A stretch of 32,000 bases of DNA from positions 108,332-140,331 of the forward strand of contig CACYHE010000001.1 in NCBI GenBank assembly GCA_902774185.1, in the 5' to 3' direction. The notes under the pieces were generated by a model. That model saw nothing but the letters and a program-made list of their open reading frames with translations, was not told the DNA's origin and did no database searches. How positions within the stretch are numbered: position 1 is the first letter of the stretch; each line of letters starts with the position of its first letter. Made by a program: the position numbers and the translations under genes. Origin of the DNA: an uncultured Bacteroidales bacterium. GTDB taxonomy: Bacteria; Bacteroidota; Bacteroidia; Bacteroidales; Paludibacteraceae. Shown here one piece after another: positions 1 to 28,748 of the stretch.

Positions 1-100
1 CGGTGTTGAACTGCGCGTGGCAAGTTGAAAATTGAAAATTGAAAATTGAAAGGAAGATGAATAGGAATAATCCTTTCACCTTTAACCTTTCACCTTTCAT
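1..100 (-). CDS. N-terminal end of a secreted protein or lipoprotein gene that runs off the left edge; only the signal peptide is visible
   Basis: ATG (minus) at 98-100 opens MKGERLKVKGLFLFIFLSIFNFQFSTCHAQFNT..., which is open to position 1. It has a basic n-region, a hydrophobic h-region and a C/AxA-like cleavage context. It is absent from the ORF track because it is under 60 aa in the window. Confidence 0.5.
   Translation of the reverse strand, partial: MKGERLKVKGLFLFIFLSIFNFQFSTCHAQFNT
25..52. repeat. Heptamer tandem array ttgaaaa x4 (sense/minus strand ttttcaa)
   Basis: Read directly: ttgaaaa ttgaaaa ttgaaaa ttgaaag. It encodes the h-region LSIFNFQFS of the partial CDS. About 30 nt match array 16228-16255 with 1 mismatch. 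Confidence 0.95.
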
Positions 101-130
101 CCTATGTGTCCTTTCACCTTTCACCGTTCA
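72..130. repeat. Heptamer array cctttca, 4 + 3 units split by a 10-nt spacer (sense tgaaagg)
   Basis: cctttca cctttaa cctttca cctttca / tcctatgtgt / cctttca cctttca ccgttca. The start codon of the partial CDS sits at the spacer edge (98-100). Confidence 0.95.
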
Positions 131-132
131 AC

Positions 133-2445
133 TTACTTACATCCTTCATTGGGGTCGAACCATGCCGGGATATTGAAGTTCTCTTCGGGATCGTATCCTA
201 AATCGGGGTCATTGAGCACTTTCTGCAGATAGATCGCACAGATAGGCAGGGCAGAGTTGGCACCCTGACCGTATTTCATGGCGTCGAAGTGGATCTGATA
301 GTCCTCTCCGCCGCACCATGCACCGGAGACGAGAGACGGGGTGAAGCACATGAACCATCCGTCCGCATTCTCATTGGACGTACCAGTCTTACCACCCATC
401 GGCGCTTTGATACCGTATTTATACCGCATACGGATACCCGTTCCGACGGTATTGGTGACGCTGTCTTTGCCTAAGACGGACTGTAACATATAGGTCATCT
501 TATAGGCGGTCGTCTCGCTGATGATCTCATGCGTCTTGGGCGTGAAGGAGGCTATGACGTTTCCGTTACTGTCTTCAATACGCGTCACGTAGAGCGGTTC
601 GGTTCGGATACCTTTGTTGGCAAAAGTGGTATATGCGTCCACCATCTCTTCCACACTCACCTCACACGGACCCAGACAGAGCGACACGACGGGGTCTATC
701 TGCCCTTTGATACCGAAGGACCGCATCAGTTTGACTAACTGCTCGGGCGTGTAGAGGGACATGATATAAGCAGACATCCAGTTGGATGATATCTGAAGAC
801 CCCATTTGAAGTCATGTATCTCGTACTGGTGTTCGGCGTGCGTGTCCGCCGGGGTCCATATACTGTCGTTTGGCAGCACGAAGGAGACGGAGTCATAGAC
901 CATCGAGTCGCAGGGCCACATGCCTTCGTCCATCGCCAGAGTGAAGAGGTAAGGCTTGACGGTAGAACCGATCTGACGACGACCTTTGGTGGTCATGTCG
1001 TACTGGAACTGCTCGAAGTTAGGTCCGCCCACATAGGCTTTGACGTGACCCGTATGGGGATCCATCGACATGAATCCGCAGCGCAGGAAACTCTTCTGCC
1101 AACGGATCGAGTCGTAGGGTGTGAGCATGGTGTCCACCATGCCTTGGTAAGTGAACATCCGCATCGGACGGGGTTCGTAGAACGTGCGCAGGATCGAGTC
1201 ATGGGCAATGCCGGCTTTCTTCATGAGGCGGTACCGGTCGGTCTGCTTCATGGCTTTCTCCATCGTTGCCTGCATGTCGAAGGCATGGGCTCCTTTGCCT
1301 AACTGTTTCCGGGAGGGTTCGGAGAAAGGTGCATAGCGTTTGCGTTTCAACTCATTGTCGAAGTCTTTCTGCAGCGCACTCATGTGTTCGTTCACCGCCT
1401 CCTCGGCGTAACGTTGCATACGCGAATCGATGGTGGTGTAGATCTTCAAACCATCCTGGTAGATATCGTATTTGGAACCGTCGGGTTTGCGGTATTTCTC
1501 GCAAAAACCATAGAGCGGATTATTCTCCCATTGCTGCTTATCGATGCTGTACTGCAACTTGTTCCAAGACGGATAATCGCTCTCACGCGGTTCTTTGGCT
1601 GTAAGTGTAAGTCGCAGATACTCACGGAAATAAGGCGCGATACCTTGTTTGTGATCGACGGAACTGAAATGCAACTCCAGCGGTAAGGCAGACACGGAAT
1701 CACGGGTTGCTTCGTCGATATAACCGTACTTCGCCATCTGACTGAGGACGGTGTTCCGACGGTTCTTCGCCCGCTCCGGATGACGACGGGGGTTGTAGTA
1801 CGAAGGGTTCTTACACATGCCCACTAACATTGCCGATTCTTCGATCTTGAGGTTCTTGGGCGTGGTGTTGAAGTAGATCTTGGCCGCCGACTGGATACCT
1901 ACGGCATTATAGAGAAAGTCGAACTGGTTGAGGTACATCAGCAGGATCTCATCCTTGGAGTAGAGTCGTTCCAACTTGGTAGCGATGACCCATTCGATGG
2001 GTTTCTGCATGGCGCGCTCCATGGTGTTGTTGGCACGCGGTGACCATAACTGCTTGGATAACTGCTGGGTAAGCGTACTGCCACCACCGGCTTTACCCAT
2101 CTTCATGATGGCACGGAACATGGATTTGAAGTCGATGCCGGTATGGGTGTAGAAACGGGCGTCTTCGGTAGCGATGAGCGCCATGATGAGCGTGTCGTTC
2201 AGGTCACTGTACTGCACGCCGACACGGTTCTCGTACCGGTAATAACGACCCAAGGACTGATGGTCCGACGAGATAATCTCGCTGGCGAAGGTGTTCTTCG
2301 GGTTCTGTAACTCCTCCAAGGGCGGTAAGTAACCCAATGCGCCTTTGGTGATGAGCCACATGATGAGCCAGACGGCCACTATTCCTACTACGAAGATACT
2401 CCAGAACCAAATCAGGAATTTCTTATACCACGGTTTCTTCTCCAT
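133..2445 (-). CDS. mrcA: Class A penicillin-binding protein 1A (bifunctional transglycosylase/transpeptidase)
   Basis: GT51 motifs EDARFYTHTGID, GGSTLTQQ and RKxxE-like are present, as are transpeptidase motifs STVK, SSN and KTGT. I chose the start at MEKKPWYKKF (ATG 2443-2445) ahead of the TM helix. The 2446-2610 extension in the ORF track overlaps hemW and has no PBP-like sequence. Confidence 0.93.
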   Translation of the reverse strand: MEKKPWYKKFLIWFWSIFVVGIVAVWLIMWLITKGALGYLPPLEELQNPKNTFASEIISSDHQSLGRYYRYENRVGVQYSDLNDTLIMALIATEDARFYTHTGIDFKSMFRAIMKMGKAGGGSTLTQQLSKQLWSPRANNTMERAMQKPIEWVIATKLERLYSKDEILLMYLNQFDFLYNAVGIQSAAKIYFNTTPKNLKIEESAMLVGMCKNPSYYNPRRHPERAKNRRNTVLSQMAKYGYIDEATRDSVSALPLELHFSSVDHKQGIAPYFREYLRLTLTAKEPRESDYPSWNKLQYSIDKQQWENNPLYGFCEKYRKPDGSKYDIYQDGLKIYTTIDSRMQRYAEEAVNEHMSALQKDFDNELKRKRYAPFSEPSRKQLGKGAHAFDMQATMEKAMKQTDRYRLMKKAGIAHDSILRTFYEPRPMRMFTYQGMVDTMLTPYDSIRWQKSFLRCGFMSMDPHTGHVKAYVGGPNFEQFQYDMTTKGRRQIGSTVKPYLFTLAMDEGMWPCDSMVYDSVSFVLPNDSIWTPADTHAEHQYEIHDFKWGLQISSNWMSAYIMSLYTPEQLVKLMRSFGIKGQIDPVVSLCLGPCEVSVEEMVDAYTTFANKGIRTEPLYVTRIEDSNGNVIASFTPKTHEIISETTAYKMTYMLQSVLGKDSVTNTVGTGIRMRYKYGIKAPMGGKTGTSNENADGWFMCFTPSLVSGAWCGGEDYQIHFDAMKYGQGANSALPICAIYLQKVLNDPDLGYDPEENFNIPAWFDPNEGCK

Positions 2446-4815: not shown

Positions 4816-6377
4816 AATTCCTTGGCGGTGCTAAGCGCAGCTTCTGTGGTTTGTTTTCCACTCAGCATGGTTGCTATCTCTGTGATACGTTCTTCGTTAC
4901 TGAGACGGCTTATGTGGGTCTCGGTACGTTTATCGGTATCGGCTTTATATACTTTGTAATGGTGGTCACCGAGTGCCGCTATCTGCGGCAGATGGGTGAT
5001 GGCGATGATCTGTCTGTGTCCCGCCATCTCCCGCATGATCGATGCCATCTGGGTGGCGATGTCGCCGCTCACACCGGTGTCTATCTCATCGAAGATGATA
5101 GTCGGCAGACCTTTGGTTCCGGCTATCAGTGCTTTGACACAAAGCATGAGTCGGCTTATCTCACCGCCGGATGCCACTTCGCTGACGTTGCGCAGGCTCT
5201 GGTTGAGGTTGGCGGCAAAGAGCAGTTGTACTTCGTCGCAACCACGTGGTGTAAAGTCTTCGGTGGCAAGGATGGGGATCTCCACTTTGGCATGCGCTAC
5301 ACCCAAACGGGTCAGACCGTTTATAAGACTCTTGCATATCTGCGGTACAACGGCTTTCCGACTCTTGGTCAAGGCATCCGCTGCTTTGCGCAAGGCGTTC
5401 TTCTCTTTCTCCACCTGTTTCTGTGCCTGCTCGATATCGAAATCGAAGGAGTCAAGTCGGTTGACCTGTTCCGCCAATTCATCCCGCATGGCGATGAGTT
5501 CGTCGATCGTCTGCGCACCGAACTTATGCAGCAGGTCTTCCAGTTGCCCGATACGCTCTTCCACCCATTGGAGTCGGGCAGGGTCCATCTCGATATGATG
5601 TAACTTCCGCTCTGCCTCCTCGGCGATGTCTTGCAGTTCGATCCGGGCACTGTCGATTCGTTCCTGCAGGTCATTTGCCGCTTCGTCCAACCGACAGGCA
5701 CGCAGTGCTTCGATGGCGCTTCCTTGTTCGCCGTTCAAGGCAGAGATAGCCGTCTCTAAGGCGGCACGGATCTCTTCCGCATGACTGAGCGTGTATTGCT
5801 CTTGCTCCAGTTCTTCCAACTCGCCGCTTTGCAAGTCGGCATCGCTCAATTGCTGGAACCGATACTGGATATAATCGGCATCGGTCCGGCTTTTCTTTGC
5901 CAAGTCCTGCAGATGTCGCAAGGCTTCGCATGCCTTTGTATAACGCTCGTATTGCGCCGAATAAGTATCTACAAGCGCTTCGTTCTGCGCGATAGTATCT
6001 ACGATATCCAACTGAAAATCAGCATTCTCGATGAGCAGGTTGGCATGCTGCGAATGGATGTCAATGAGTCGGGTAGCCAGCACTTTGAGTTCCTGCAATG
6101 TCACAACGCTGTCATCAACGAAGGAACGACTCTTGCCGTTACTGTACAATTCCCGACGGATGATACAATCGGAGAATTCCGCCTCGATGATACATTTGTC
6201 TTCGCCGTCGGTGATGACCTTACTGTCCGCCCGGGCACCCAAGACCAATGCCAAGGCACCAAGAATGATACTCTTACCGGCTCCGGTCTCACCTGTCATG
6301 ACGGAGAAGCCATCTTCAAAATCAATATTCAGATGACTTATCAGCGCGTAGTTCTGTATGTGTAAATGCTTAAGCAT
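4797..6377 (-). CDS. recN: DNA repair protein RecN
   Basis: Walker A GETGAGKS, a long coiled-coil middle, SGGE signature and Walker B IIFDEIDTG. I chose the start at MLKHLHIQNYALI (ATG 6375-6377). The track start at 6386 is a TTG inside the repeat array. Confidence 0.92.
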   Translation of the reverse strand: MLKHLHIQNYALISHLNIDFEDGFSVMTGETGAGKSIILGALALVLGARADSKVITDGEDKCIIEAEFSDCIIRRELYSNGKSRSFVDDSVVTLQELKVLATRLIDIHSQHANLLIENADFQLDIVDTIAQNEALVDTYSAQYERYTKACEALRHLQDLAKKSRTDADYIQYRFQQLSDADLQSGELEELEQEQYTLSHAEEIRAALETAISALNGEQGSAIEALRACRLDEAANDLQERIDSARIELQDIAEEAERKLHHIEMDPARLQWVEERIGQLEDLLHKFGAQTIDELIAMRDELAEQVNRLDSFDFDIEQAQKQVEKEKNALRKAADALTKSRKAVVPQICKSLINGLTRLGVAHAKVEIPILATEDFTPRGCDEVQLLFAANLNQSLRNVSEVASGGEISRLMLCVKALIAGTKGLPTIIFDEIDTGVSGDIATQMASIMREMAGHRQIIAITHLPQIAALGDHHYKVYKADTDKRTETHISRLSNEERITEIATMLSGKQTTEAALSTAKELLNRTS

Positions 6378-6379
6378 TT

Positions 6380-6409
6380 CTTTCAACTTTCAACTTTAAA
6401 CTTTCAACT
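6380..6409. repeat. Heptamer array ctttcaa x4 (sense ttgaaag), recN leader
   Basis: ctttcaa ctttcaa ctttaaa ctttcaa ct. Positions 6379-6409 are identical (31 nt) to 9024-9054 inside aroE. Confidence 0.95.
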
Positions 6410-6436: not shown

Positions 6437-7343
6437 CATACGTTGCCTGCCGGGTGGCATCGATATCCATCAGCAGGTCATACACTGTTTTCTTCTCTTT
6501 GTCCGTTCCTTTGCTGAAGATATCCACCAACTCATCGGCTTTGGCGTCCAGGAAAGTGTTGATGACGTAGGTAGCGGGACGGGAACGATAGGCCTCTTTG
6601 AGCACCGGAATGCCTTCGGCGATACGTGCTCTGCCGTTGGTGGCATTGGCACTCATCTCGTCCAAACCCAAACGGTGGTACTCGTAATAGAAATTGCGGT
6701 ATTTCTTGAAAGACTCATCCAAGAGGTTATTAATCAGCGCGTAACGGTTTCGGTTACTGTTAAACGCCGTCCATCCTTTCTGTTCCTTATCGTCCATGCT
6801 CACACCTTGGCAGAGGGTGACGATCTGTTCGCATTGCTGGAAGAACGGGGTGCCGCCTAAACGCTGAAAACTATCGCAGTCATGCCCGATGATGAGATAA
6901 CAGTAGTACGCCAACATCGCCGTGAGGTTGGTAGAGAATGTGTTCTGCTGCCACTCGATGCGGTCAAACTCCTCGTACGTGAAATTGAAGTTTTCATCCC
7001 GGAAGTTGAGGAGCGGGGTGGTGTAGGTCGTGCCAAAGACGGGACGACGGCTCTGTAGTGTCATCTCGCAAAGGTACAGGTTGTCCTGCACGGCTTTTAC
7101 AACAAGTAACATGCTGCACTCGATTTTCTCATGCTCCGCAAAGGTCATGTTGGTCCATCGGTTCTGGTTCATGTACTCTTCGATGGCGGTCTTGAGGGTG
7201 GCAAAGGCCTGTTTGTTCGAACCCTCTATCTGATCCGAGTTCACCGTGACCGTGCATTTGAGTTCCTGGGCATGAAGGGGAGCACAGAACACAGAACACA
7301 GAACACAGACCGATAATGCTATGTATCTAAATTTTAAAATCAT
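6417..7343 (-). CDS. DUF4835 family protein (PorD-like), secreted
   Basis: Signal peptide MILKFRYIALSVCVLCSVFCAPLHA/QE followed by a VTVNSDQIEGSNKQAF...NQNRWT block typical of DUF4835. Its position next to recN is the usual Bacteroidota synteny. The family name is from memory. Confidence 0.8.
   Translation of the reverse strand: MILKFRYIALSVCVLCSVFCAPLHAQELKCTVTVNSDQIEGSNKQAFATLKTAIEEYMNQNRWTNMTFAEHEKIECSMLLVVKAVQDNLYLCEMTLQSRRPVFGTTYTTPLLNFRDENFNFTYEEFDRIEWQQNTFSTNLTAMLAYYCYLIIGHDCDSFQRLGGTPFFQQCEQIVTLCQGVSMDDKEQKGWTAFNSNRNRYALINNLLDESFKKYRNFYYEYHRLGLDEMSANATNGRARIAEGIPVLKEAYRSRPATYVINTFLDAKADELVDIFSKGTDKEKKTVYDLLMDIDATRQATYDRINGN
7283..7310. repeat. Heptamer array cacagaa x4 (sense ttctgtg)
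   Basis: cacagaa x3 followed by cacagac. It encodes VCVLCSVFC, the h-region of the DUF4835 signal peptide. Confidence 0.95.
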
Positions 7344-8453: not shown

Positions 8454-9170
8454 TCAATTATTCCAAATCTTCCAAGCTTCTTTGGCTTGACCTGTTAACA
8501 TCTCTATTCCGTTCTGCGTTCGGACACCTTGTGCTTTGCCTTTACGCAAGAAGAGGGTCTCTTCGGGGTTGTAGATACAATCGTACAACAAATGTTGTGC
8601 CGAAAGGTGTTCGTAGGGTATCGGCGGACAAGTATCGATATCCGGATACATGCCTAATGGCGTACAGTTGACGATGACCGTATGGCGGTTCATGATGTCG
8701 GAATCCAAATCGTCGTACGTCAAGGTTCCTTCTGCAGCATGCCTACTGACAAGGGTAGGGACGATCCCTAACAGCCGTAACGCATAGCACACGGCTTTGG
8801 CGGCACCGCCAGTACCTAACACCAAGGCCTGTCGGTCTTGTTTGTGCAACAATGGTCTTATCGATTCCATGAATCCGATATAGTCGGTGTTGTAACCGGT
8901 TCGTTGATACACCACGTTTACGGCGCCTATCGCTTGTGCCGTCGGGTCGATACGATTCAGGTACGGGATAATCGCCTGTTTATACGGATACGTCACATTA
9001 AACCCGTCCAAATCGGACAAAAGTCTTTCAACTTTCAACTTTAAACTTTCAACTCTCGTTGGGTACAACGAGTACTCCGCCTCTATGCCTTCTGTCGCAA
9101 ATTTCTGATTGAAGAACTGCGCAGAGAACGAGTGTTCCAATGGAAATCCTATGATACCGAAGTGACGCAT
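8454..9170 (-). CDS. aroE: Shikimate dehydrogenase
   Basis: MRHFGIIGFPLEHSFS, GFNVTYPYK, GAVN and the NADP-binding GTGGAAKAV motif. It contains a translated heptamer array at 9025-9054 (RVESLKLKVER). Confidence 0.9.
   Translation of the reverse strand: MRHFGIIGFPLEHSFSAQFFNQKFATEGIEAEYSLYPTRVESLKLKVERLLSDLDGFNVTYPYKQAIIPYLNRIDPTAQAIGAVNVVYQRTGYNTDYIGFMESIRPLLHKQDRQALVLGTGGAAKAVCYALRLLGIVPTLVSRHAAEGTLTYDDLDSDIMNRHTVIVNCTPLGMYPDIDTCPPIPYEHLSAQHLLYDCIYNPEETLFLRKGKAQGVRTQNGIEMLTGQAKEAWKIWNN
9025..9054. repeat. Heptamer array ctttcaa x4, translated inside aroE
   Basis: ctttcaa ctttcaa ctttaaa ctttcaa ct. It is read in frame as RVESLKLKVER. Confidence 0.95.
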
Positions 9171-11719: not shown

Positions 11720-11749
11720 CTTTCAACTTTAAACTTTCAACTTTCAACT
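11720..11749. repeat. Heptamer array ctttcaa x4 (sense ttgaaag), ettA leader and folA 3' end
   Basis: ctttcaa ctttaaa ctttcaa ctttcaa ct. The flanks catttc...ctg are identical to those of array 6380-6409. Confidence 0.95.
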
Positions 11750-13168: not shown

Positions 13169-13291
13169 CTGATTATTGATTTTTAATTCGAAGAATTTGG
13201 AAGATTATTTTGATAAAATGATTTGCAAATTTATTTGTGAAAGCAGTTTAGCAAAATAAGATTCGTATTGTCAAATAAAATCAATAATCAG
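13169..13291. repeat. 123-bp element bounded by a perfect 15-bp inverted repeat (MITE-like, E2); carries the likely GxxExxY promoter
   Basis: ctgattattgatttt (13169-13183) and aaaatcaataatcag (13277-13291) are exact reverse complements. The interior holds a minus-strand TTTG-N18-TAAATTTG. Confidence 0.5.
13226..13255 (-). promoter_or_regulatory. Probable promoter of the GxxExxY / small-membrane-protein pair
   Basis: The minus strand reads TTTG (13252-13255), N18, TAAATTTG (13226-13233), about 85 nt upstream of the ATG at 13140. Confidence 0.4.
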
Positions 13292-13353
13292 GGTTTTGTA
13301 TGTTTTTTTCTTAAATTATCAATCAGTGTTTTATATGTTTTTTTCCTTCAAAT
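13281..13353. repeat. Tandem imperfect duplication of about 37 bp just downstream of the thyA stop
   Basis: tcaataatcagggttttgtatgtttttttcttaaatt versus tcaatcagtgttttatatgtttttttccttcaaat. The first copy includes the right inverted-repeat arm of element 13169-13291. Confidence 0.7.
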
Positions 13354-13354
13354 T

Positions 13355-14149
13355 TTAAACGCTTACAACGCCCGCTATATGAGGGTGCGGGTCGTACCCT
13401 TCTAAAGTAAAGTCTTCGTATTGGAACCCGAATAAGTCTTGCACTTCGGGGTTAATAATCATCTTCGGTAACGCTCTGGGTTCACGTGTCAGCTGCAACT
13501 TGACTTGCTCCAAATGGTTGAGGTAGATATGTGCGTCACCAAGCGTGTGTACGAAATCGCCGCATTGGAGACCCGTCACCTGCGCCATCATCTGCAGGAG
13601 TAGGGCATAAGAGGCGATATTAAACGGTACGCCCAAGAAGATATCGGCACTGCGCTGATAGAGTTGCAAACTCAACTTACCGTCCGCCACATAGAACTGA
13701 AACAGACAGTGACACGGTGGCAACGCCATCTTCTCCACCTCGGCTACATTCCAGGCACTAACCAGCAGGCGTCGGCTGTCGGGGTTTTCCTTAATCGTCT
13801 TCACGATATTGGCTATCTGATCGATGGTACCTCCGTTATAGTCCGGCCAAGAGCGCCATTGATGACCATAGACAGGACCAAGTTCACCGTTCTCGTCTGC
13901 CCATTCGTTCCAGATACGGACACCGTGGTCCTGCAGGTACTTGACGTTCGTGTCGCCGTTCAGGAACCACAATAACTCATAGATGATGGACTTGAGGTGC
14001 AGTTTTTTGGTGGTCAAGAGCGGAAAACCGTCTTCCATCTTAAACCGCATTTGATGACCGAACACGGATATCGTTCCCGTTCCTGTCCGGTCTTGTTTGA
14101 CGGTGCCTTCCTCCAGCACCCGCCTGCATAAGTCTAAATACTGTTTCAT
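13355..14149 (-). CDS. thyA: Thymidylate synthase
   Basis: MKQYLDL..., RTGTGT, active-site LPPCH, and 264 aa. Confidence 0.95.
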
Positions 14150-14203: not shown

Positions 14204-16294
14204 CTAGTATAGTTTATACGTTGTTTTGAGTACCTTGAACTCGGTACGACGGTTGATCTGGTTGCAGATCTCTTGTTTGTCAATCGGCAGACTGTTGATG
14301 AACGTCTCGTCCAGCACTTGCTCAACCGGTATCCACGGATATTGCTTGTTAAGCGCCTTGTCTGCCACCACCGGTTTGGTTTTACCGTATCCTACCGGCG
14401 TCAGACGTTCTTTCTCAATACCGTGTTGGATGAGGTAGTCACAGCAACTCTGTGCACGTTTCTGACTTAACTCGTTGTTGAACTCGTCCGTACCCTTCAA
14501 GTCCGTATGGGCACTGAGCTCAATGGTGATATTGGGGTTGTCGTTAAGCAGTTTAACCAATTTCTCCATCTCTTTCTCCGAGGCCTGCGTCAACTCCCAT
14601 CGACCGAACTCATAGAACACATTCTCCATCGTGACGGGTCGGCTAATCGGTTGCAGCACAAAGTCCATCGTGTAGGTCTTGCTGTCCTTCAAACCGAAGG
14701 TGTTCCATTGCTCTTTGGCGTTCAGATAACCTCTGGCGGTGACTAACATGACGTACTTGACGTCTTGTTGCAGTTTGATCTTGTACTTACCGTCCCGACG
14801 GGCGTTGAGTTTACTGTTCGTGCCGTCGGATCCCACAATACGCAACATGGCGTCGGCGATAGGATTGCCCAAACCGTCGTTCACCGTCCCTTGTGCTATG
14901 AACTCCATCTCAGGCAAGGTAAACTGGTAGATCTTATCCATCCCTTTCTTATCGCCTCGGTTGGAGGAGAAGAAACCGTTCTGACTGTTTCCGGCAAAAG
15001 TGATACCGAAGTCATCGCCGGCTCCGTTGAAGGGCGCCCCCATGTTAAACAGGATCCACACGACGCTGTCTTTGTAGGTCGTGTCACGTGTGGCTTTGAA
15101 GATATCCAGACCTCCGTAACCCGGATGACCGTTCGAGGCAAAATAGAGCGTACCGTCAGCGTGTACATAAGGGAACATCTCATCGGCACTCGTGTTGATT
15201 CCGGCTTCCAAAGGATGCGCGTTCACCCATTGGTTTTCTGCCAACTCCGCCATCCAGATATCTTTTCCTCCTTGACCGCCCGGTGCATCACTGGCGAAAT
15301 AGAGCGTGTCACCCATCGGACTGAGCGCAGGATGACCCACCGTGATCGTACTGTCGGTAAATAGTTTGACTTCCTGTGCTTCGCCCCATTCACCGCTTGC
15401 CCGTTCACTACAGTAGATCTTAGCACCCAGATCCTGACCGTTGATAGGCTTGGAGTAAGTGAAATACATCATCCTGCCGTCCTTGGTAAAGCAGCACGCA
15501 CCCATCTCTGCGTTCGCTCCGCCTTTACCACTGGTCGAGTCATTCTGTTGTTCCTCTTCCTCTTGATCCCCGTACAAACCCTCTGCCGGTTCTATCTCTT
15601 CCCATTCTCCGGCTGCGTTCTTGCGTGTCTGGTAGAGTTGGAAAAGCTGTTGACCCGTCACGTTACTGGCGCGTTTGAGTTTTTTCGTTCCCTTCTCTTT
15701 GGACTCCTGCCGGTTTGATGTGAACATGAGTGCGTCGTTTTGATCACCGATGAACATCGGGGCGAAGTTACTGCTGCGTTTCTTGTTAAACATCTTCGCT
15801 TCGCTTACCTTGTACCGGCTGGTCTCTTTCTTCCACTCGTCCATCTTCGTGCAAGCGTACTTGCCGGCCTGCGCTACATAGTCATCGGGATGGGCTTCCA
15901 GATAGGAATCGTAGTGCTTGATGGCATCTTTGTATTTACCTTGGTTCTGCAGCACTTGTGCGGCATGCAGGTAAATCGTCGAGTCCTGTAACTGGTACTT
16001 ACAACGCAATGCACTCTGGTAAGCATTAGCAGCACGGGGATTATTGATATAGCGGTAACACTCCGCCTGACGGTAAGCGACGTAGCCCTTCAAGTCCCGT
16101 TGCTTCTGCGTACTGAGCCGACTATAACAGGACTTGTAGATCTCTCCGGCCGCATAGTACTCCCCGATGGCGTATTTCTTATCCGCCCGCTTGATACGTT
16201 GCTGGATAGAGCACCCGCTCAGAAGAATTGAAAATTGAAAAATGAAAATTGAAAGGAGAAAACCTTTCACCTTTGACCTATCACTTTTCAACAT
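14204..16294 (-). CDS. OmpA-family lipoprotein with TPR, TolB-like beta-propeller, CarboxypepD_reg-like and OmpA C-terminal domains
   Basis: Lipobox LLSGC, TPR-like AECYRYINNPRAANAYQSAL, WD40-like repeats (YFASD/YFASN), and a C-terminal OmpA motif (LSAHTDLKGTDEFNNELSQKRAQS). I chose the ATG at 16292-16294 (MLKSDRSKVKGFLL...). The track start at 16315 is a GTG inside a repeat. Confidence 0.88.
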   Translation of the reverse strand: MLKSDRSKVKGFLLSIFIFQFSILLSGCSIQQRIKRADKKYAIGEYYAAGEIYKSCYSRLSTQKQRDLKGYVAYRQAECYRYINNPRAANAYQSALRCKYQLQDSTIYLHAAQVLQNQGKYKDAIKHYDSYLEAHPDDYVAQAGKYACTKMDEWKKETSRYKVSEAKMFNKKRSSNFAPMFIGDQNDALMFTSNRQESKEKGTKKLKRASNVTGQQLFQLYQTRKNAAGEWEEIEPAEGLYGDQEEEEQQNDSTSGKGGANAEMGACCFTKDGRMMYFTYSKPINGQDLGAKIYCSERASGEWGEAQEVKLFTDSTITVGHPALSPMGDTLYFASDAPGGQGGKDIWMAELAENQWVNAHPLEAGINTSADEMFPYVHADGTLYFASNGHPGYGGLDIFKATRDTTYKDSVVWILFNMGAPFNGAGDDFGITFAGNSQNGFFSSNRGDKKGMDKIYQFTLPEMEFIAQGTVNDGLGNPIADAMLRIVGSDGTNSKLNARRDGKYKIKLQQDVKYVMLVTARGYLNAKEQWNTFGLKDSKTYTMDFVLQPISRPVTMENVFYEFGRWELTQASEKEMEKLVKLLNDNPNITIELSAHTDLKGTDEFNNELSQKRAQSCCDYLIQHGIEKERLTPVGYGKTKPVVADKALNKQYPWIPVEQVLDETFINSLPIDKQEICNQINRRTEFKVLKTTYKLY
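16228..16255. repeat. Heptamer array ttgaaaa x4 (sense ttttcaa)
   Basis: ttgaaaa ttgaaaa atgaaaa ttgaaag. It encodes LSIFIFQFS of the OmpA-family lipoprotein signal peptide. Confidence 0.95.
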
Positions 16295-16328
16295 ATATTT
16301 CCTTTCACTTTTCACCTTTCACCTTTCA
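16263..16328. repeat. Heptamer array cctttca, 4 + 4 units split by a 10-nt spacer (sense tgaaagg)
   Basis: cctttca cctttga cctatca cttttca / acatatattt / cctttca cttttca cctttca cctttca. The spacer carries the ATG at 16292-16294. The last unit carries the DUF1015 TGA stop (16326-16328). Confidence 0.95.
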
Positions 16329-18140: not shown

Positions 18141-18161
18141 TCAATTGTCAATTATCAATTA
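18141..18161. repeat. Heptamer array tcaattg/tcaatta x3
   Basis: tcaattg tcaatta tcaatta. It lies at the bactofilin-esterase junction and contains the esterase TGA stop (18155-18157). Confidence 0.85.
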
Positions 18162-18901
18162 TTGAAAAGTTTCGGCAAGAAACGTTTCAAATACTCTTGC
18201 CAATTCGGCCATACATGACCGTCCGTACTCTCGTAATACGTGTACTCCACATGCTCTTTTTCAAGCCATTTGCGGTACTCCTGAAAACTATCCCACAGAA
18301 AATCCTCCGTACCGATACCCAACCAGAACACTTTCGCGTCTTTCGGAGCATTATGAACGAACGTAGCCGGCGAGAACATTCCTACATACGCAAATTGTCC
18401 TTCCAACACATAGGACACCCGCATCGTGTGGTAACCACCCATTGAGAGACCGGCGATCGCGCGTTGCTCGGGATCCGTGCAGATACGGTATTTCGACTCT
18501 GTCTCCTTCATGAAAGCACCGAAGTTCGCTTCCCATTGACCGTTGGACGCGTTCTCTCTCTCTTCCTCCGAAGTAGGCCTGCTCGGACAGTTATCCGGCA
18601 TCACGACAACCATCTCACGTATCTCGCCTGCGCGTAGAAGGGAGTCCATAATAGGCACTAATCGACCCTGTGTGGTCCAGTCGAACTCATTTCCCCACAT
18701 CCCGTGTTGCAGATAGAGCACCGGAAAGACCTCCGTACGTGCTGCGTACTGATCCGGCAGATAGACACAGCAGGGCACGCCGTTCAAGGTGTCTTGTACC
18801 ACCGTACCGGCCTGTAACGGCCTGTCTTCCACCTGTTTCGCACATGCTATACTCATGCACGCGATACCTATCAGATAGGCACTAAAAATCCATTTCTTCA
18901 T
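18155..18901 (-). CDS. Esterase family alpha/beta hydrolase, lipoprotein or secreted
   Basis: Signal peptide MKKWIFSAYLIGIACMSIAC, the GLSMGG nucleophile elbow, and a PF00756-like layout. Start at ATG 18899-18901. The upstream track extension reads through the promoter. Confidence 0.85.
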   Translation of the reverse strand: MKKWIFSAYLIGIACMSIACAKQVEDRPLQAGTVVQDTLNGVPCCVYLPDQYAARTEVFPVLYLQHGMWGNEFDWTTQGRLVPIMDSLLRAGEIREMVVVMPDNCPSRPTSEEERENASNGQWEANFGAFMKETESKYRICTDPEQRAIAGLSMGGYHTMRVSYVLEGQFAYVGMFSPATFVHNAPKDAKVFWLGIGTEDFLWDSFQEYRKWLEKEHVEYTYYESTDGHVWPNWQEYLKRFLPKLFNN

Positions 18902-18922
18902 ATATGCACACAAATTTGGGTG

Positions 18923-18954
18923 CAAAGGTACGACTTTTTTTTGACATACGCAAG
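18923..18954 (-). promoter_or_regulatory. Bacteroidota sigma-A type promoter of the esterase gene
   Basis: The minus strand reads cTTGcgtatgtcaaaaaaaagtcgTAccTTTGc. The -7 box TACCTTTG (18923-18930) lies 21 nt upstream of the ATG. Confidence 0.7.
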
Positions 18955-19110
18955 CACGCGCGTACTTTTTTATGATTTTTATTACTTTTTCCTTCTTCCA
19001 AATTCGCATAGTTCAAAATTATTTGTTCCTTAATATCCTATGTATCGAACTCAACCATCGATACCTGTGTAATCCATGTAAAATAAAGGCTTGCCACGTA
19101 TGCGTATTGG

Positions 19111-19150
19111 GTGATTATAGGGAGATTATTGCGTGATTATTGCGTGATTC
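19111..19150. repeat. 11-bp period tandem repeat gtgattattgc x3.6
   Basis: gtgattatagg gagattattgc gtgattattgc gtgattc. It lies in the spacer between the FGE stop and the esterase promoter. Confidence 0.85.
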
Positions 19151-20534: not shown

Positions 20535-20688
20535 GCCTTGTCCCTAACAAATACTGTGCCATATATAAAATGTGATATTTTCTTATTTTGCGTGTTTTTT
20601 GGGGAATGGAGAAGATGAGGAATGAAAATCGAGGGGGTGTCGAAAAATGAATAAAAATCGCTTAAAATGCAAAAAAATGGGCAAAAAA

Positions 20689-20720
20689 CTTGCGTATGTC
20701 AAAAAAAAGTAGTAATTTTG
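20689..20720 (+). promoter_or_regulatory. Bacteroidota sigma-A type promoter of the SIMPL gene
   Basis: cTTGcgtatgtcaaaaaaaagtagTAatTTTGc. The -7 box TAATTTTG lies at 20713-20720. The 22-nt core is identical to the esterase promoter. Confidence 0.7.
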
Positions 20721-20738
20721 CGCAAAATTTGGAAAGAT

Positions 20739-21425
20739 ATGAAAAATAATGTTTTTGCGGGCGCGTTGGTAGCGCTGGGTTTATGTCTTGGAGGTTTGTT
20801 CATTAACCTCGGTATTAATAAGTTTGCCTCGAAAGATCGGGCGGTGACGGTGAAGGGTCTGAGTACCCGTGAAGTGGAAGCGGACTATGCCGTTTGGCCT
20901 TTGTCGTTTGCATGGAGCGGAAATGATCTGCCGGCACTCTATACGAAGTTGGAACAAGTGACCGAGCGGGTGAAGAACCATCTGCAGTCCCTGGGCTTTG
21001 AGGAAGCCGATATCCGGCAGGGTAGTGTGTCGGTTAGCAATAACTGGGACGGATACTACGGTAATCGTCCGGAATTCAAATATACGCTGAGTACGTCGCT
21101 TATCGTTTCGACCGATAAAGTGGCGTTGGTTGTGGCGAGTCAAGGAAAGGAATCCGCTTTGCTCAAAGAGGGAATCATCGTGACTACAGAGAAATGGAAT
21201 CTGGATTACCAGTTCAACGGTCTGCCTGAGTTGAAGCCGTCGATGATCGAAGAGGCAACGCGTAATGCCCGTGCGGTCGCACAGAAATTTGCGGACGATG
21301 CCCAATGTAACTTGGGTTCGATCCGTCAAGCCAGCCAAGGACAGTTCTCCATCGAGTCCGACCAGTACCAGCCTTGGCGCAAACATGTACGCGTCGTGAC
21401 GACCGTTGATTATTATCTCAATTAA
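20739..21425 (+). CDS. SIMPL domain-containing protein (DUF541)
   Basis: MKNNVFAGALVALGLCLGGLFINLG (TM anchor) followed by DRAVTVKGLSTREVEADYAVWPL, typical of Bacteroidales SIMPL proteins. ATG at 20739, 19 nt after a TAATTTTG -7 box. Confidence 0.85.
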   Translation: MKNNVFAGALVALGLCLGGLFINLGINKFASKDRAVTVKGLSTREVEADYAVWPLSFAWSGNDLPALYTKLEQVTERVKNHLQSLGFEEADIRQGSVSVSNNWDGYYGNRPEFKYTLSTSLIVSTDKVALVVASQGKESALLKEGIIVTTEKWNLDYQFNGLPELKPSMIEEATRNARAVAQKFADDAQCNLGSIRQASQGQFSIESDQYQPWRKHVRVVTTVDYYLN

Positions 21426-26962: not shown

Positions 26963-27531
26963 TGTTTGTAATCGGCAATAACACATTAGTCAGTCTGGAC
27001 GTACTTGAAAAAGAGTTCTGCTGTGACCTGGATACCTGTCGGGGGTGTTGCTGTATCGAAGGCGATGCCGGTTGTCCTATTACCGATGAGGAAGTAGTAC
27101 AGATAAAGCAGATCTTACCGCAACTGTTGCCGCAGATGACCAAAGAAGCACGGGAAGTAGTTGAACAACAGGGACTTAGTTATCTGGACCCTTCCGGAGA
27201 ACAAGTGCTCTCTATCGTGAACGGAAAGGATTGTGTTTTTGCCCGTATCGATCATCAAGGCTGGTGTTACTGTTTGATAGAGAAAATGGGATTTTCCAAA
27301 CCGATATCGTGTCATCTGTATCCGATACGGCTGACTAAAGTAGGAGACTATACTGGCGTGGAGTACCATCGTTGGGATATCTGTCATTGTGCCCGGCTGA
27401 AAGGAAAAAAACTGCATTTGCCGCTCTATCAGTTCTTGAAAGAACCACTAATACGTCGTTTTGGGCAGGCATGGTATGATGAATTGGAACTAACGGCTAA
27501 TGAATGGAAAAAACAATGCGCGCAGAGATAA
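26962..27531 (+). CDS. DUF3109 family protein (Cys-rich)
   Basis: FCCDLDTCRGCCCIEGDAGCP is characteristic of DUF3109. TAATG overlap with mntP. Confidence 0.85.
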   Translation: MFVIGNNTLVSLDVLEKEFCCDLDTCRGCCCIEGDAGCPITDEEVVQIKQILPQLLPQMTKEAREVVEQQGLSYLDPSGEQVLSIVNGKDCVFARIDHQGWCYCLIEKMGFSKPISCHLYPIRLTKVGDYTGVEYHRWDICHCARLKGKKLHLPLYQFLKEPLIRRFGQAWYDELELTANEWKKQCAQR

Positions 27532-28748
27532 TTACGATAGGAGATGAACTGCTGATCGGTCAGGTGGTGGACACCAACTCCGCTTGGATGGCCCAGCGAT
27601 TGAATGAGCAAGGTATTGAACTATACCGGATTACGTCCGTTCATGACGATAAGGCACAGATCATAGATGCCTTAGATGCTGCATTTAACGAAGTGGATAT
27701 CGTGTTGACGACCGGCGGTTTGGGTCCGACCAAAGATGATATCACCAAGCAGGTGTTATGCGATTATTTCCATACGCACCTTATAGAAGATACGCGTGTG
27801 CGTACGCATATAGAGGAACTCTATCGTGATCGTCCGGACGTGTTGAACCGACTGACCGCTACGCAATGGCAAGTGCCTGCTTGTGCCGAGATTCTGGAGA
27901 ATCGGGTAGGGTCCGCTCCGCTGATGGTTTTTAAGAAGGATGACAAGCTGCTTATCACTATGCCCGGTGTGCCTTACGAGATGAAGATCGCGATGGAGGA
28001 ACAAATTCTGCCGTTTATAGAGTCGAAAGTCGAAAGTCAAAAGTCGAAAGCCATTATCCATAAGACGCTGCAGGTGACGGGTATCGCAGAGAGTTCGTTG
28101 GCGATCTTACTGGAGGACTTTGAGAACCGAATGCCTTCGTCCTTGCACTTGGCGTATTTACCCAAAGACGGGGTGATCCGTTTGCGTTTGTCGAGTTACG
28201 GCGATATGACAGAAGAAGAGGTGACACGTTGGTTTGATGAGTTGAAACAGTTGACGGCTGATTATCTGATCGCCGATACCGATGAACCGCTTGAAGTGAT
28301 TGTAGGCAATGTGTTAAAAGCCAAAGGCATGACCATCTCCACTGCCGAGAGTTGTACAGGCGGTAAACTGGCTTCATTACTCAATAAGCATGCCGGTTCG
28401 TCTGCTTTCTATTGGGGTTCGGTCATCAGTTATGACAACTCCGTCAAGGTGCAGGTCTTAGGCGTTCCGGCAGAACTGATAGAAAAGTACGGCGTAGTAA
28501 GCGAAGAGGTGGTACGTGTGATGGCACAGTCTGTTCGCAAACTAACCAATACTACTTGTAGTATTGCTACATCCGGTATCGCAGGACCATCCGGTGGTTC
28601 GAAAACCAAGCCGGTTGGTACCGTTTGGATGGCTTGGGACACGCCTAAAGGGACGTTTGCGGAGTGTTTTCATTTAGGCAAACTGCGTGAACAGGTAACC
28701 GACAGAGCATGCCAGAAAGCATTGATAGGATTATTAAAACATATTTAA
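27516..28748 (+). CDS. cinA: CinA family protein (competence/damage-inducible; NMN deamidase-type C-terminal domain)
   Basis: MRAEIITIGDELLIGQVVDTNS (MoCF_biosynth domain) and a C-terminal ESCTGG CinA domain. An alternative ATG at 27504 would add MEKT. It contains a translated array at 28021-28048 (ESKVESQKSK). Confidence 0.9.
   Translation: MRAEIITIGDELLIGQVVDTNSAWMAQRLNEQGIELYRITSVHDDKAQIIDALDAAFNEVDIVLTTGGLGPTKDDITKQVLCDYFHTHLIEDTRVRTHIEELYRDRPDVLNRLTATQWQVPACAEILENRVGSAPLMVFKKDDKLLITMPGVPYEMKIAMEEQILPFIESKVESQKSKAIIHKTLQVTGIAESSLAILLEDFENRMPSSLHLAYLPKDGVIRLRLSSYGDMTEEEVTRWFDELKQLTADYLIADTDEPLEVIVGNVLKAKGMTISTAESCTGGKLASLLNKHAGSSAFYWGSVISYDNSVKVQVLGVPAELIEKYGVVSEEVVRVMAQSVRKLTNTTCSIATSGIAGPSGGSKTKPVGTVWMAWDTPKGTFAECFHLGKLREQVTDRACQKALIGLLKHI
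28021..28048. repeat. Heptamer array agtcgaa x4, translated inside cinA
   Basis: agtcgaa agtcgaa agtcaaa agtcgaa. It reads ESKVESQKSK. The unit differs by one base from gttgaaa (TGA becomes CGA). Confidence 0.95.

Follow-up and report, generated by a model that had tools for sequence, protein, structure and literature searches.

A dispersed cassette of 7-base units at a PBP1A/TPR gene junction in Bacteroidales, likely translated as a signal peptide

The very short junction between a PBP1A-family penicillin-binding protein gene and a TPR protein gene carries one copy (copy A) of a dispersed repeat cassette of about 80-110 nt that is built from 7-base units. Taken as a whole, copy A is likely a member of a clade-specific family of such cassettes (type 1) that was copied to this junction and is translated as a signal peptide. 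A second copy of the same family (copy B) is found in the window, by which we mean the whole stretch of 32,000 nt that was analysed. The coordinates are collected in Table 1; those of copy A are all read on the minus strand.

Table 1. Positions of copy A, copy B, the type 2 cassette and the PBP1A gene in the window
Feature	Position	Strand	Remarks
PBP1A-family penicillin-binding protein gene	133..2445	-	770 aa; stop TAA 135-133 is the left boundary of the copy A cassette
Copy A, leader array TGAACGG TGAAAGG TGAAAGG	130-110	-	Directly 3' of PBP1A; TGA in 3/3 frames
Copy A, non-repeat spacer ACACATAGG	109-101	-	Kept as ACA(C/T)ATA(A/G)G in copies preceding other genes
Copy A, ATG start codon of TPR gene	100-98	-	Chosen by gene callers on L001 and L002
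Copy A, purine-rich coding arm (A)TGAAAGG TGAAAGG TTAAAGG TGAAAGG	99-72	-	n-region MKGERLKVKG
Copy A, 18-nt linker ATTATTCCTATTCATCTT	71-54	-	LFLFIF, start of h-region; predicted hairpin loop and inner stem
Copy A, T-rich arm CCTTTCAATTTTCAATTTTCAATTTTCAA = CCTTTCAA(TTTTCAA)x3	53-25	-	LSIFNFQFS, h-region; degenerate inverted complement of purine arm
Gene-specific c-region T-C-H-A	25..14	-	Predicted signal peptidase I site between Ala (16-14) and Gln (13-11)
First codons of mature TPR protein (QFNT...)	13..1	-	Gene continues beyond window edge
Type 2 cassette (ACATAGCATTATCGG + TCTGTGT x4)	7283..7343	-	Encodes ..YIALSVCVLCSVFCAPLHAQ of T9SS PorD (364 bits)
Copy B, same family	16211..16328	-	Begins T9SS PorE lipoprotein gene (14204..16294)
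Copy B, leader	16328-16301	-	
Copy B, ATG	16294-16292	-	
Copy B, purine arm	16290-16263	-	
Copy B, 6-nt linker		-	
Copy B, T arm	16256-16228	-	
Copy B, Cys codon	16213-16211	-	

In the type 1 architecture a linker joins a purine-rich array, (GTGAAAG)n, to a degenerate inverted one, CCTTTCAA(TTTTCAA)n. Copy A occupies the entire space from the PBP1A stop codon to the predicted signal peptidase site of the TPR protein, and its translation is MKGERLKVKGLFLFIFLSIFNFQFSTCHAQFNT. Stop codons lie in two of the three frames of its purine arm, leaving a single open frame. The upstream gene carries the Pfam domains Transgly/PBP_middle/Transpeptidase and matches TIGR02074 at 426 bits, and its protein has an exact match on two other contigs. 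A longer version taken from the longest ORF (825 aa) had no look-up match, and the true start is at 2445. PBP1A and TPR are presumed to be co-transcribed, as the junction is so short.

The TPR gene encodes 668 aa (in L001) and, in two independent assemblies with an identical PBP1A protein, is called from the ATG given in Table 1, 33 nt past the PBP1A gene. Judged by eye, the N-terminus fits the criteria for a Sec-type (signal peptidase I) signal peptide, i.e. a charged n-region, an h-region of about 10-15 residues and small residues at -3 and -1. The n-region has a net charge of +3, the h-region is LFLFIFLSIFNFQFS, and the c-region TCHA has C at -3 and A at -1. Bacteroidetes are reported to follow a 'Q-rule' of Gln at +1 (Bochtler et al. 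2018), which copy A also meets. No lipobox in canonical context was found in copy A; the residues read STC and then HAQ, and the Cys is absent from the orthologues.

In about 120 TPR homologues AQ is found at one fixed position regardless of the type of signal peptide. The mature end AQ(F/L)NTDRITAIG is kept behind very different signal peptides, some of them ordinary non-repeat ones, and we therefore infer that the TPR protein is exported and requires this N-terminus. The copy A cassette is thus probably read as the TPR export signal. Translation, export and cleavage are all inferred here, without experimental evidence.

Copy B has a leader array (16301-16328) that covers stops in all three frames. 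Its signal peptide ends in LLSGC, which meets the lipobox criterion of signal peptidase II (LSGC, Cys28), and the gene behind it matches the T9SS PorE lipoprotein family with 738 bits. PorE is annotated as an outer-membrane lipoprotein family. Aligned from the upstream stop array through the whole T arm (about 94 positions), copies A and B are about 88% identical. The sole gap is one in-frame gap of 12 nt in the linker, and the reading frame relative to the element is identical. The window contains the 29-nt T arm at 25-53 (0 mismatches) and again at 16228-16256 (1 mismatch), against 0 occurrences in dinucleotide shuffles. Allowing up to two mismatches, TGAAAGGTGAAAGG has 19 matches where 0.25 are expected. 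Gene duplication as the origin of A and B was rejected because both the upstream and the downstream genes of the two copies are unrelated.

The family was scanned with the pattern GTGAAAGG-N(4-30)-CCTTTCAATTTTCA, using one genome per species. This gave 45 loci, about 38 of them from rumen Bacteroidales/Paludibacteraceae MAGs, with a maximum of nine per genome. An nhmmer profile found additional copies within these loci, outside the search pattern. All family sequences are from MAGs or metagenome contigs. Assembly chimera, i.e. an artefact of repeats about as long as the assembler k-mer, was rejected because the order PBP1A-TPR-TraB recurs in six independent assemblies with three cassette types. 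A search for phage origin gave no exact match of the T arm among 2.9 million viral contigs.

The aligned family core is AAGGTGAAAGGTGAAAGGTTAAAGGTGAAAGG, a linker and CCTTTCAATTTTCAWTTTTCAATTTTCAA, and it is common to copies preceding different genes; the number of leader units differs among the other type 1 copies. Long ORFs are opened by 27 copies, and in all of these the T arm is read as LSIF(N/I)FQFS. At least 12 envelope protein families, unrelated by Pfam, begin with a type 1 cassette. These include Omp85/POTRA, CarbopepD_reg+DUF5686, M23 and S41 peptidases, Wzi-like proteins, DUF6048, OMP beta-barrels, TraB/GumN, T9SS PorE (copy B) and TPR (copy A). The criteria for a dispersed repeat, namely non-orthologous positions and a similarity that reaches into non-repeat parts, are met. 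The shared part stops just short of the gene-specific A|Q in copy A, or of the lipobox Cys (LSGC) in copy B. From the sequence we infer a division of roles, in which the purine arm would supply the charged n-region and the linker and T arm the h-region, with each gene contributing its own cleavage site.

It could be argued that A and B are independent A/T-rich heptamer arrays, grown by local slippage and alike only through low complexity. The genome is indeed full of locally variable period-7 arrays, able to arise and change in place. Against this, the similarity spans non-repeat parts (the spacer and the arm/linker junctions), and the architecture, the position of the variant unit and the reading frame are the same. 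The recurrence of the 29-mer, found in no shuffle, and the presence of the same composite element before at least 12 unrelated genes in many genomes are further points against it. The nhmmer matches outside the pattern speak against an artefact of the search. Chance resemblance is, in our judgement, practically ruled out.

A preliminary description of copy A, made from the sequence alone, had proposed that this is the second copy of a signal-peptide-encoding repeat module. This held, with the reservation that export itself is inferred. The following details held as well: the layout of seven units with the spacer, the ATG at 98-100 and the T-rich arm; TGA in all three frames directly past the PBP1A stop (TGAACGG, TGAAAGG, TGAAAGG at 130-110); the match of the T arm at 25-52 to 16228-16255 with one mismatch (the arm is 29 nt, with the mismatch in B); and, on the plus strand, an inverted repeat of tgaaagg (47-53) and cctttca (72-78) with a loop of 18 nt. 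The description would have been refuted if the ORF were not kept leftward of the window edge, or if A and B were no more similar than random A/T-rich heptamer arrays. The ORF is kept, as the 668-aa TPR gene starts from this ATG in two assemblies, and the similarity reflects shared descent in a family of dozens of copies.

One part of the preliminary description failed. It had taken TTAAAGG in copy A and TCAAAGG in copy B, found at the unit in which TGA would be in frame, for two different single-base fixes, but as independent events these are not supported. TTAAAGG is found at unit 3 in nearly all type 1 copies regardless of the gene and is the family consensus; it is therefore inherited together with the element. 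Copy B's TCAAAGG may have been derived from TTAAAGG through one transition.

Another explanation is that the cassette is a non-coding intergenic repeat (a REP/REPIN-like hairpin, a terminator or an mRNA stabiliser) and that the true TPR start is elsewhere. REPs and REPINs are mobilised by RAYT transposases; they are extragenic and untranslated, have a GTAG-type motif and co-occur with a RAYT gene. No such motif or gene was found with the cassettes in the loci analysed, which fall short of whole genomes. The likeness lies in hairpin-forming doublets of about 100 nt with tens to hundreds of dispersed copies at gene ends. A non-coding role is also supported by Tb.RUG.288, in which inverted arrays of the same kind are mostly found after stop codons, outside long ORFs and untranslated, as in a few other genomes; the element is therefore not intrinsically a signal peptide. 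Strong hairpins are predicted for types 1 and 3 (see below), and copy B was flagged as one weak terminator-like site with 3 G-C pairs.

Several observations argue against a non-coding role. No alternative start was found, and the mature TPR sequence follows directly after the cassette with no Met or other signal peptide beyond it. In repeat-free homologues an ordinary signal peptide occupies this position and ends in the same AQ, and the PorE lipobox Cys comes directly after copy B. Copy A has no intrinsic terminator site. No Rfam 15 family reached its gathering score anywhere in the window, and positions 1-300 had no match even at E<=1. As most type 1 copies are translated, they fail to be extragenic in the way REPINs are. 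The linker lengths of the 27 coding copies are 0 mod 3 in 21 cases, 2 mod 3 in 6 and 1 mod 3 in none, i.e. no coding copy has a length that would place TGA in frame. This last evidence is partly circular, because 'coding' copies were defined through their open frame. Altogether we consider a purely non-coding element very improbable.

The cassettes lie in a setting rich in heptamer arrays. The window and the clade loci have about 4.5 period-7 arrays per 10 kb, mostly at gene junctions, and next to none of periods 6, 8 and 9; in five unrelated control loci the period-7 count is 0. Exact arrays of at least three copies in the window have period 7 only; with one mismatch allowed there are 15 period-7 arrays in 32 kb vs 0-1 for periods 6, 8 and 9. 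All junction arrays of the window are in sense orientation and have a stop triplet in the unit on the sense strand. Heptamer arrays are also found inside cytoplasmic enzymes and between unrelated genes, and they vary by insertions and deletions between strains that are 97.5% identical.

Such abundance has precedents. Long simple sequence repeats (LSSRs) with units of 5-11 nt have been described (Mrazek et al. 2007, as summarised in PMC4679880), and heterocystous cyanobacteria have STRR heptamers. The arrays here meet the LSSR criterion of at least three tandem 7-nt copies in excess over other periods. They share with these systems a genome-wide excess specific to period 7, for which polymerase slippage favoured at 7 nt has been proposed. 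Those accounts cover array abundance only, however, and not composite inverted-array signal-peptide cassettes. Beggiatoaceae, Cyanobacteria and five Bacteroidetes, Paludibacter propionicigenes among them, have been reported to carry direct repeats of the heptamer TAACTGA ahead of their start codons (MacGregor 2015, PMC4679880). The placement in that system (sense, directly before starts, with three-frame stops) is also that of the window arrays. Common features are sense arrays of 2-6 units just before start codons with stops in 3/3 frames, occasional overlap with the upstream stop codon, lack of a recognisable Shine-Dalgarno sequence and a patchy phylogenetic distribution. In contrast, the units here are diverse (GTGAAAG, TTGAAAG, CATAAAT, TTGATAA, TCTGTGT and others), the density given above is far above 169 sets per genome, and the arrays run on into the ORF as a translated inverted T-rich array. 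The TAACTGA unit itself was found in no array of the window.

With tandem units of this kind a contingency locus has to be considered, in which slipped-strand gain or loss of 7 nt would turn envelope proteins on and off (phase variation). The period of 7 is not a multiple of 3, and the TGA of the purine arm in the other two frames means that a shift would end translation at once. Non-coding arrays do vary, by 5 units between species in the copy B leader and by 2 units of CATAAAT between strains. However, only non-coding leader arrays vary in this way, and the unit-number polymorphism expected of a contingency locus is not found: the coding arms always have four units, both across species with 72-100% identical proteins and in all strain variants of 99-100% identity. 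No frameshifted allele was found among the homologues, cassettes are found on genes expected to be essential, e.g. that of an Omp85/BamA-like protein, and four-unit arrays are short for efficient slippage. Phase variation is thus a very unlikely explanation.

The PBP1A/TPR junction carries three different heptamer cassettes among strains with near-identical flanks. In two loci (L048 and L049) the TPR proteins are 95% identical to that of the window and the flanks nearly so, while the sequence between the PBP1A stop and the AQ codons is unrelated, consisting of TCTGTGT x4 (type 2) or of TTGATAA x4 + TCAATTG x4 (type 3). The type 2 cassette thus stands in for type 1 at the TPR gene in other strains. 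It does so too at the TraB/GumN gene, the gene after TPR, which has type 1 in RUG12549 and RGIG3224 and type 2 in the window's strain. This wider context was out of reach of the preliminary description: period-7 arrays abound at gene junctions both in the window and in its relatives, and at least two other heptamer cassettes take this junction in near-identical strains.

Within one genome the copies resemble each other. In RGIG3224 the spacer GGATAAATAGG and the linker AATGTTTCTTCTCATCTT are common to three neighbouring copies, and in RUG12549 AATTCTTATTCTTTTCTT is common to the TPR and TraB copies. Orthologous TPR copies differ from genome to genome. That paralogous copies share genome-specific linkers points to copying inside the genome. 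The cassettes undergo concerted evolution within genomes, together with exchange of cassette type among strains. The mode of spread is inferred from sequence patterns, and no enzyme or mechanism of copying has been identified. The inverted arrays of type 1 resemble the TIRs of a MITE. Where relatives lack type 1 at such a site they carry another cassette in its place; none of these sites was found empty, and neither a target-site duplication nor an associated transposase came to light for the type 1 cassette. The claim of copying therefore depends on sequence patterns alone. Filled vs empty sites of solitary TTGAAAG arrays showed no evident duplication.

Among known translated repeats, the Rickettsia palindromic elements (RPEs; Ogata et al. 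2000, Science 290:347, as cited in PMC2759123) are similar in being short dispersed palindromic repeats that are in frame in genes, translated, and found in many unrelated genes of one clade. They differ in that they are not tandem heptamers and insert at internal, surface-exposed positions. To our knowledge RPEs do not supply signal peptides and are not swapped between alternative cassettes at one site; no sequence relationship is expected. The enterobacterial MITE-like RU-1/RU-2 (Delihas 2007, PMC2759123) likewise shows an intergenic mobile repeat fused to an ORF. It is a single in-silico case, whereas type 1 has at least 12 envelope families, many genomes, cross-species conservation and rival cassettes at the same junction. 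In the vsa/vsp/vlp loci of Mycoplasma a conserved signal-peptide expression site serves variable lipoproteins. There, too, one 5' signal-peptide segment serves different mature proteins through DNA rearrangement, but those loci involve one gene family at one locus, site-specific recombinases and antigenic variation, whereas the cassettes serve unrelated, scattered housekeeping envelope genes.

The cassette is conserved at the nucleotide level beyond the coding requirement. Copy B and its orthologue, in a species with about 76% identity across the region, are identical over about 135 nt including the variant units, the loop and the spacer; the sole exception is an indel of 5 units in the non-coding leader. 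Across the orthologous pairs compared, identity is 79-100% for the T arm and 77-100% for the purine arm; for the next 300 nt of coding sequence it is 64-83% in most pairs (94% and 99% in two close pairs). These estimates are inflated by ascertainment, as the pattern used to find most of the orthologues itself fixes 22 nt. The only pair found without the pattern (TraB, L006/L024) has 4 differences in 27 positions of the T arm.

Folding predictions give a hairpin with the AUG within the stem for copy A (-36.8 kcal/mol, z = -4.7) and copy B (-31.6 kcal/mol, z = -4.6). For the type 3 cassette, which has different heptamers, a hairpin of about 30 bp is predicted (z = -6.0). Types 1 and 3 are thus predicted by the model to fold into an AUG-burying hairpin. 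We used the type 3 hairpin as a substitute for covariation, which would be uninformative here because the search pattern dictates the arms and the register of pairing within the arrays is ambiguous. Type 2 cassettes fold no better than shuffles (z = -0.2 to -0.8), and some type 1 copies reach only z = -1.5 to -2.8. A hairpin is not a feature of every cassette, and any function it has is therefore dispensable for export. Its role is inferred; there are no RNA structure data.

The mechanism we propose is as follows. The cassette would have reached the PBP1A/TPR junction through copying from elsewhere in the genome (gene conversion or insertion), not by local slippage and not by duplication of genes. 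It would be translated in the single frame left open by the TTAAAGG variant unit, and the three upstream units would supply TGA in every frame behind PBP1A. The two arms may pair in the mRNA, so that the AUG is buried. In that case the hairpin would have to be opened for initiation, and the simplest way would be termination of ribosomes at the adjacent upstream stop (translational coupling).

The strongest competitor to this proposal is that the cassettes are neutral, selfish or mutational filler: a heptamer process lands at junctions, and its products persist since any hydrophobic stretch works, with no function of hairpin or sequence. Signal peptides tolerate almost any hydrophobic sequence. 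Three unrelated cassettes serve one gene, type 2 is without structure, arrays are also found in cytoplasmic enzymes and between unrelated genes, and selfish insertion is also how the closest precedents (the RPEs and, from Delihas 2007, the MITE-derived peptide) are viewed. On the other hand, neutral sequence should diverge at least at the synonymous-site rate, and copy B does not, given its identity over about 135 nt at 76% regional identity. In most orthologue pairs conservation is higher in the arms than in the neighbouring coding sequence, and the junction arrays of the window are all in sense orientation with sense-strand stop codons. We consider filler less likely than not, though a real possibility.

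Beyond the reading of copy A as a translated type 1 cassette, a bolder one is conceivable. Heptamer cassettes may be placed at junctions, as exchangeable units, by a sequence-specific copy-and-paste process that is active in this clade and for which no enzyme is known. In the same joint claim, a cassette might at once give three-frame termination, a hairpin-held start that gates or couples initiation without Shine-Dalgarno pairing, and the n- and h-regions. At about 4.5 arrays per 10 kb, a genome would by extrapolation contain on the order of a thousand of them.

Signal peptides are usually seen as evolving gene by gene under physicochemical constraint only. Here one DNA cassette appears to be the source of export signals, with export inferred, for many unrelated outer-membrane and periplasmic proteins. 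Swaps occur between strains whose TPR proteins are at least 95% identical, the copies in one genome are kept alike, and the nucleotide conservation of copy B exceeds that of the proteins served by these cassettes. Bacteroidetes initiate translation without Shine-Dalgarno pairing, and the hairpin, if functional, would be a compact means of coordinating the translation of adjacent genes without it. If the cassettes are instead selfish DNA, they would provide the clearest example in bacteria of a repeat family surviving by posing as signal peptides. Either way, the heptamer excess of this clade is a tractable system for the question of why some prokaryotes favour 7-nt repeats.

On the practical side, the cassettes mislead start-codon calling and may cause assembly breaks in rumen MAGs. 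In copy A the start codon is ambiguous between the ATG at 100-98, an in-frame GTG in the leader array (124-122) and an in-frame GTG at 79-77. The start at 98-100 given in the preliminary description is supported by the gene callers, with the GTG codons remaining as alternatives. The NCBI annotation of a 99%-identical homologue (P0007) starts with MKGLFLF, which corresponds to the GTG at 79-77; the choice of start at these cassettes differs between annotation pipelines.

Copy A, the repeat between a PBP1A-family gene and a TPR protein gene, is inferred from sequence alone to be a translated member of a dispersed family of heptamer-array cassettes. Its translation is MKGERLKVKGLFLFIFLSIFNFQFSTCHAQFNT, and the cassette would provide the n- and h-regions of a signal peptide, the cleavage site coming from the gene itself. 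The layout is given in the table, where the purine arm and the T arm are the two coding arrays of a type 1 cassette. Alignment with copy B, which starts the T9SS PorE lipoprotein gene at 16211-16328 (minus strand), covered everything between the stop array and the far end of the T arm and gave approximately 88% identity. It contained a single gap, 12 nt long, in frame and located in the linker, and both copies use the same reading frame relative to the element. The preliminary description had claimed a match between the T-rich arms of the two copies and an inverted repeat (47-53 and 72-78) with an 18-nt loop. Both claims held; a second occurrence of the 29-nt T arm, with 1 mismatch, lies at 16228-16256, and shuffles gave 0 matches. 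The claim that two different single-base changes had opened the frame in the two copies did not hold in that form. TTAAAGG, the variant unit abolishing the only in-frame TGA of the purine arm, is found in nearly all family copies and was therefore inherited with the element.

Positions of copy A elements and of other repeat features (window coordinates unless a contig is named)
Feature	Position	Strand	Remarks
PBP1A-family gene end, TAA	135-133	minus	true start 2445, 770 aa
Leader array TGAACGG, TGAAAGG, TGAAAGG	130-110	minus	TGA in three frames out of three
Spacer ACACATAGG	109-101	minus	
ATG start codon	100-98	minus	
Purine arm (A)TGAAAGG, TGAAAGG, TTAAAGG, TGAAAGG	99-72	minus	four units
Linker	71-54	minus	18 nt
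T-rich arm CCTTTCAA(TTTTCAA)x3	53-25	minus	
Type 2 cassette	7283-7343	minus	start of T9SS PorD gene
Type 2 site, contig L001	~14215-14290		
Type 2 site, contig L048	3001-3070		
TTGAAAG family	6380-6409	minus	
TTGAAAG family (TTGAAAG/TTTAAAG)	9025-9054	minus	in shikimate dehydrogenase gene 8454..9170 (-)
TTGAAAG family	11720-11749	minus	
TTGAAAG family	25785-25815	plus	
AGTCGAA x4	28021-28050	plus	in CinA-like gene 27504..28748
AATTAAA x5	16915-16948	minus	in DUF1015 gene, read in the sole open frame of the array
35-nt direct repeat, 1.9 copies	13286-13354		just downstream of thymidylate synthase gene 13355..14149 (-)
11-nt repeat TATTGGGTGAT, 4.1 copies	19105-19149		intergenic
Promoter-like block	~18920-18957	minus	
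Promoter-like block	~20689-20730	plus	

That the open reading frame continues past the window edge was confirmed by leftward extension. An identical PBP1A protein is encoded on two other contigs, L001 (99.99% identity to the window, reaching 10 kb past its left edge) and L002 (~97.5% identity), and in both the called gene of a 668-aa TPR protein begins at the ATG of copy A. Close homologues bear the name 'MAG: Paludibacteraceae bacterium'. The mature end AQ(F/L)NTDRITAIGRNALYFEDY is common to ~120 TPR homologues, whose signal peptides group into recurring types: type 1 is the cassette of copy A, type 2 (..YIALSVCVLCSVLC.PLHAQ) is encoded by TCTGTGT x4 and type 3 (..LSIVNCQLSICFAQ) by TCAATTG x4. 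More distant relatives carry ordinary, non-repeat signal peptides.

Cassette types have been swapped among strains. TPR proteins 95-98% identical to that of the window carry a signal peptide of type 2 or 3. In contigs L048 and L049 a near-perfect match to the window runs up to the PBP1A stop codon and resumes at the AQ codons; the intervening 100-125 nt are unrelated to it. For TraB/GumN, the next gene downstream, the cassette is of type 2 in the strain of the window and of type 1 in two further species.

Type 2 is a dispersed family too, with ACATAGCATTATCGG followed by TCTGTGT x4 yielding ..YIALSVCVLCSVFC.PL(H/K)AQ. It is found at the start of both PorD and TraB/GumN, and other strains have it on the TPR protein. 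TACATAGCAT also occurs within the long linker of two type 1 copies (L005, L026), a hint that chimeras between types may exist.

The cassette family exists and is in use on unrelated exported proteins. Scanning one genome per species with the pattern GTGAAAGG-N(4-30)-CCTTTCAATTTTCA gave 45 loci, ~38 of them in rumen Bacteroidales/Paludibacteraceae MAGs with at most 9 per genome; a handful of matches in unrelated phyla are due to chance. Further type 1 copies inside these loci were recovered by profile search. Long ORFs are opened by 27 copies, reading ..K(V/G)KGERLKVKG(I/L).. and then ..LSIF(N/I)FQFS... The envelope families led by type 1 copies are mutually unrelated: Omp85/POTRA, CarboxypepD_reg + DUF5686, peptidase M23, Wzi-like, DUF6048, two OMP beta-barrel proteins, S41 peptidase, TraB/GumN, the TPR protein (copy A) and PorE (copy B, 738 bits). 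The common sequence ends just 5' of the gene-specific c-region, which has A|Q in signal peptidase I substrates and the lipobox Cys in lipoproteins.

In one genome, Tb.RUG.288, related inverted arrays are mostly untranslated and downstream of stop codons. At its loci L009, L015, L035, L047 and L004, stop codons are followed by a palindrome with fewer imperfections, (GGTGAAA)n - loop - (CCTTTCA)n(ATTTTCA)n, and in one case a canonical G+C-rich terminator comes directly after it. This palindrome could represent the ancestral state of the cassette, in which it is not translated. Purine arrays were also found in frame in the mature part of an S41 peptidase ORF (L044, ..PSVKVKGERLKVKGKDS..) and near the C-terminus of the ORF at locus L008 (..GGKVKGERTKDG..); coding sequence has therefore been entered outside signal peptides too.

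Copies within a genome are in concerted evolution. Three neighbouring type 1 copies in the genome RGIG3224 have the same spacer (GGATAAATAGG) and the same linker (AATGTTTCTTCTCATCTT), both particular to that genome, and the TPR and TraB copies of RUG12549 have one linker, unlike that of RGIG3224. Orthologous TPR copies are unlike one another across genomes, and this combination is a signature of within-genome copying or gene conversion.

According to the main rival explanation, the cassettes are filler of selfish or mutational origin, and they are tolerated as any hydrophobic sequence serves in signal peptides. We lean against it, since a conserved island at copy B speaks against pure neutrality. 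In contrast to the within-genome likeness of type 1 copies, this conservation is between species: between the upstream stop codon and the lipobox, ~135 nt are identical to the orthologue in a species whose surrounding region is 75.7% identical. The sole exception is a 35-nt indel of five units in the non-coding leader array (longer at ~5150-5200 of locus L007 than at 16301-16328 of the window), and freedom to change in unit number is therefore confined to sequence outside the reading frame. With the coding arms held at four units, phase variation through these arrays is unlikely. For the signal-peptide cassettes themselves, the orthologue pairs tested showed 79-100% identity in the T arm and 77-100% in the purine arm; the 300 coding nucleotides that follow were 64-83% identical in most pairs, with third-position differences of up to 35-55%. 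The arm figures are inflated by the search pattern, and the only pair found without it had 4/27 differences in the T arm.

An extra role in cis is suggested by conservation at the nucleotide level, together with the hairpins that types 1 and 3 form in prediction. The predicted RNA folds of copy A (-36.8 kcal/mol, z = -4.7) and copy B (-31.6 kcal/mol, z = -4.6) pair the T-rich arm with the purine arm, AUG included. Type 3, with other heptamers (TTGATAA / TCAATTG), is predicted to form a ~30-bp hairpin at the same junction (z = -6.0). Type 2 folded no better than shuffles, and a hairpin or coupling role is therefore dispensable for export. The most likely role in cis would be translational coupling or start-codon gating, favoured on two grounds: the outer stem has its beginning at the stop codon of the upstream gene, and translation in Bacteroidetes does not depend on Shine-Dalgarno pairing. 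This is inference only. Copy A was not terminator-like and copy B weakly so in the terminator check. No family was matched in Rfam, and viral contigs contained no match to the T arm.

The nearest precedents are the Rickettsia palindromic elements, likewise translated and dispersed, a lone Y. pestis case in which a MITE-like repeat adds to a predicted signal peptide (Delihas, PMC2759123), the TAACTGA heptamer repeats that precede start codons in Beggiatoaceae, Cyanobacteria and a few Bacteroidetes, Paludibacter among them (MacGregor, PMC4679880), and a general excess of heptanucleotide repeats (Mrazek, as cited in PMC4679880). Composite inverted heptamer arrays acting as exchangeable signal-peptide cassettes for many envelope genes are described in none of the four.

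Tandem Repeats Finder identified ~20 short period-7 arrays in the window. Among exact arrays of at least 3 copies with periods 4-12, only period 7 occurred. With one mismatch allowed, 15 period-7 arrays were counted in 32 kb (~4.5 per 10 kb), with equal density in the relatives' loci and 0 in five unrelated control loci; arrays of periods 6, 8 and 9 were nearly absent. The majority lie at junctions of co-directional genes in sense orientation, and most have TGA, TAA or TAG on the sense strand. Turnover is fast: compared with the window, L002 lacks two TTGAAAG arrays (40-43 nt) and one GGATTAGT array, and its CATAAAT array is two units shorter. At both missing TTGAAAG sites the flanking genes of L002 overlap stop-to-start.

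TTGAAAG forms a second dispersed array family of four units, one of them variant (TTTAAAG or TTGAGAG), and every copy is in sense orientation. Immediately 5' or 3' of gene ends are three copies, two of which are missing in L002. Exactly one frame is open (..ESLKLKVE..), as in the purine arm of the cassette. The copy within the Shikimate_dh_N domain is translated in frame as RVESLKLKVERL; the Pfam match is complete (1-83 of 83), and the array thus seemingly substitutes part of the domain and is not an extension. AGTCGAA is a stop-free relative of TTGAAAG, and the CinA-like and DUF1015 arrays are in genes of cytoplasmic proteins. The 35-nt and 11-nt repeats are the sole longer-period arrays in the window. 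A block CTTGCGTATGTCAAAAAAAAGT(C/A)GTA..TTTGC, common to two divergent promoter-like regions, ends in a motif resembling the Bacteroidetes -7 box (TAnnTTTG), and the true starts of ORFs 18155..19009 and 20667..21425 are likely further downstream than in the longest-ORF listing.
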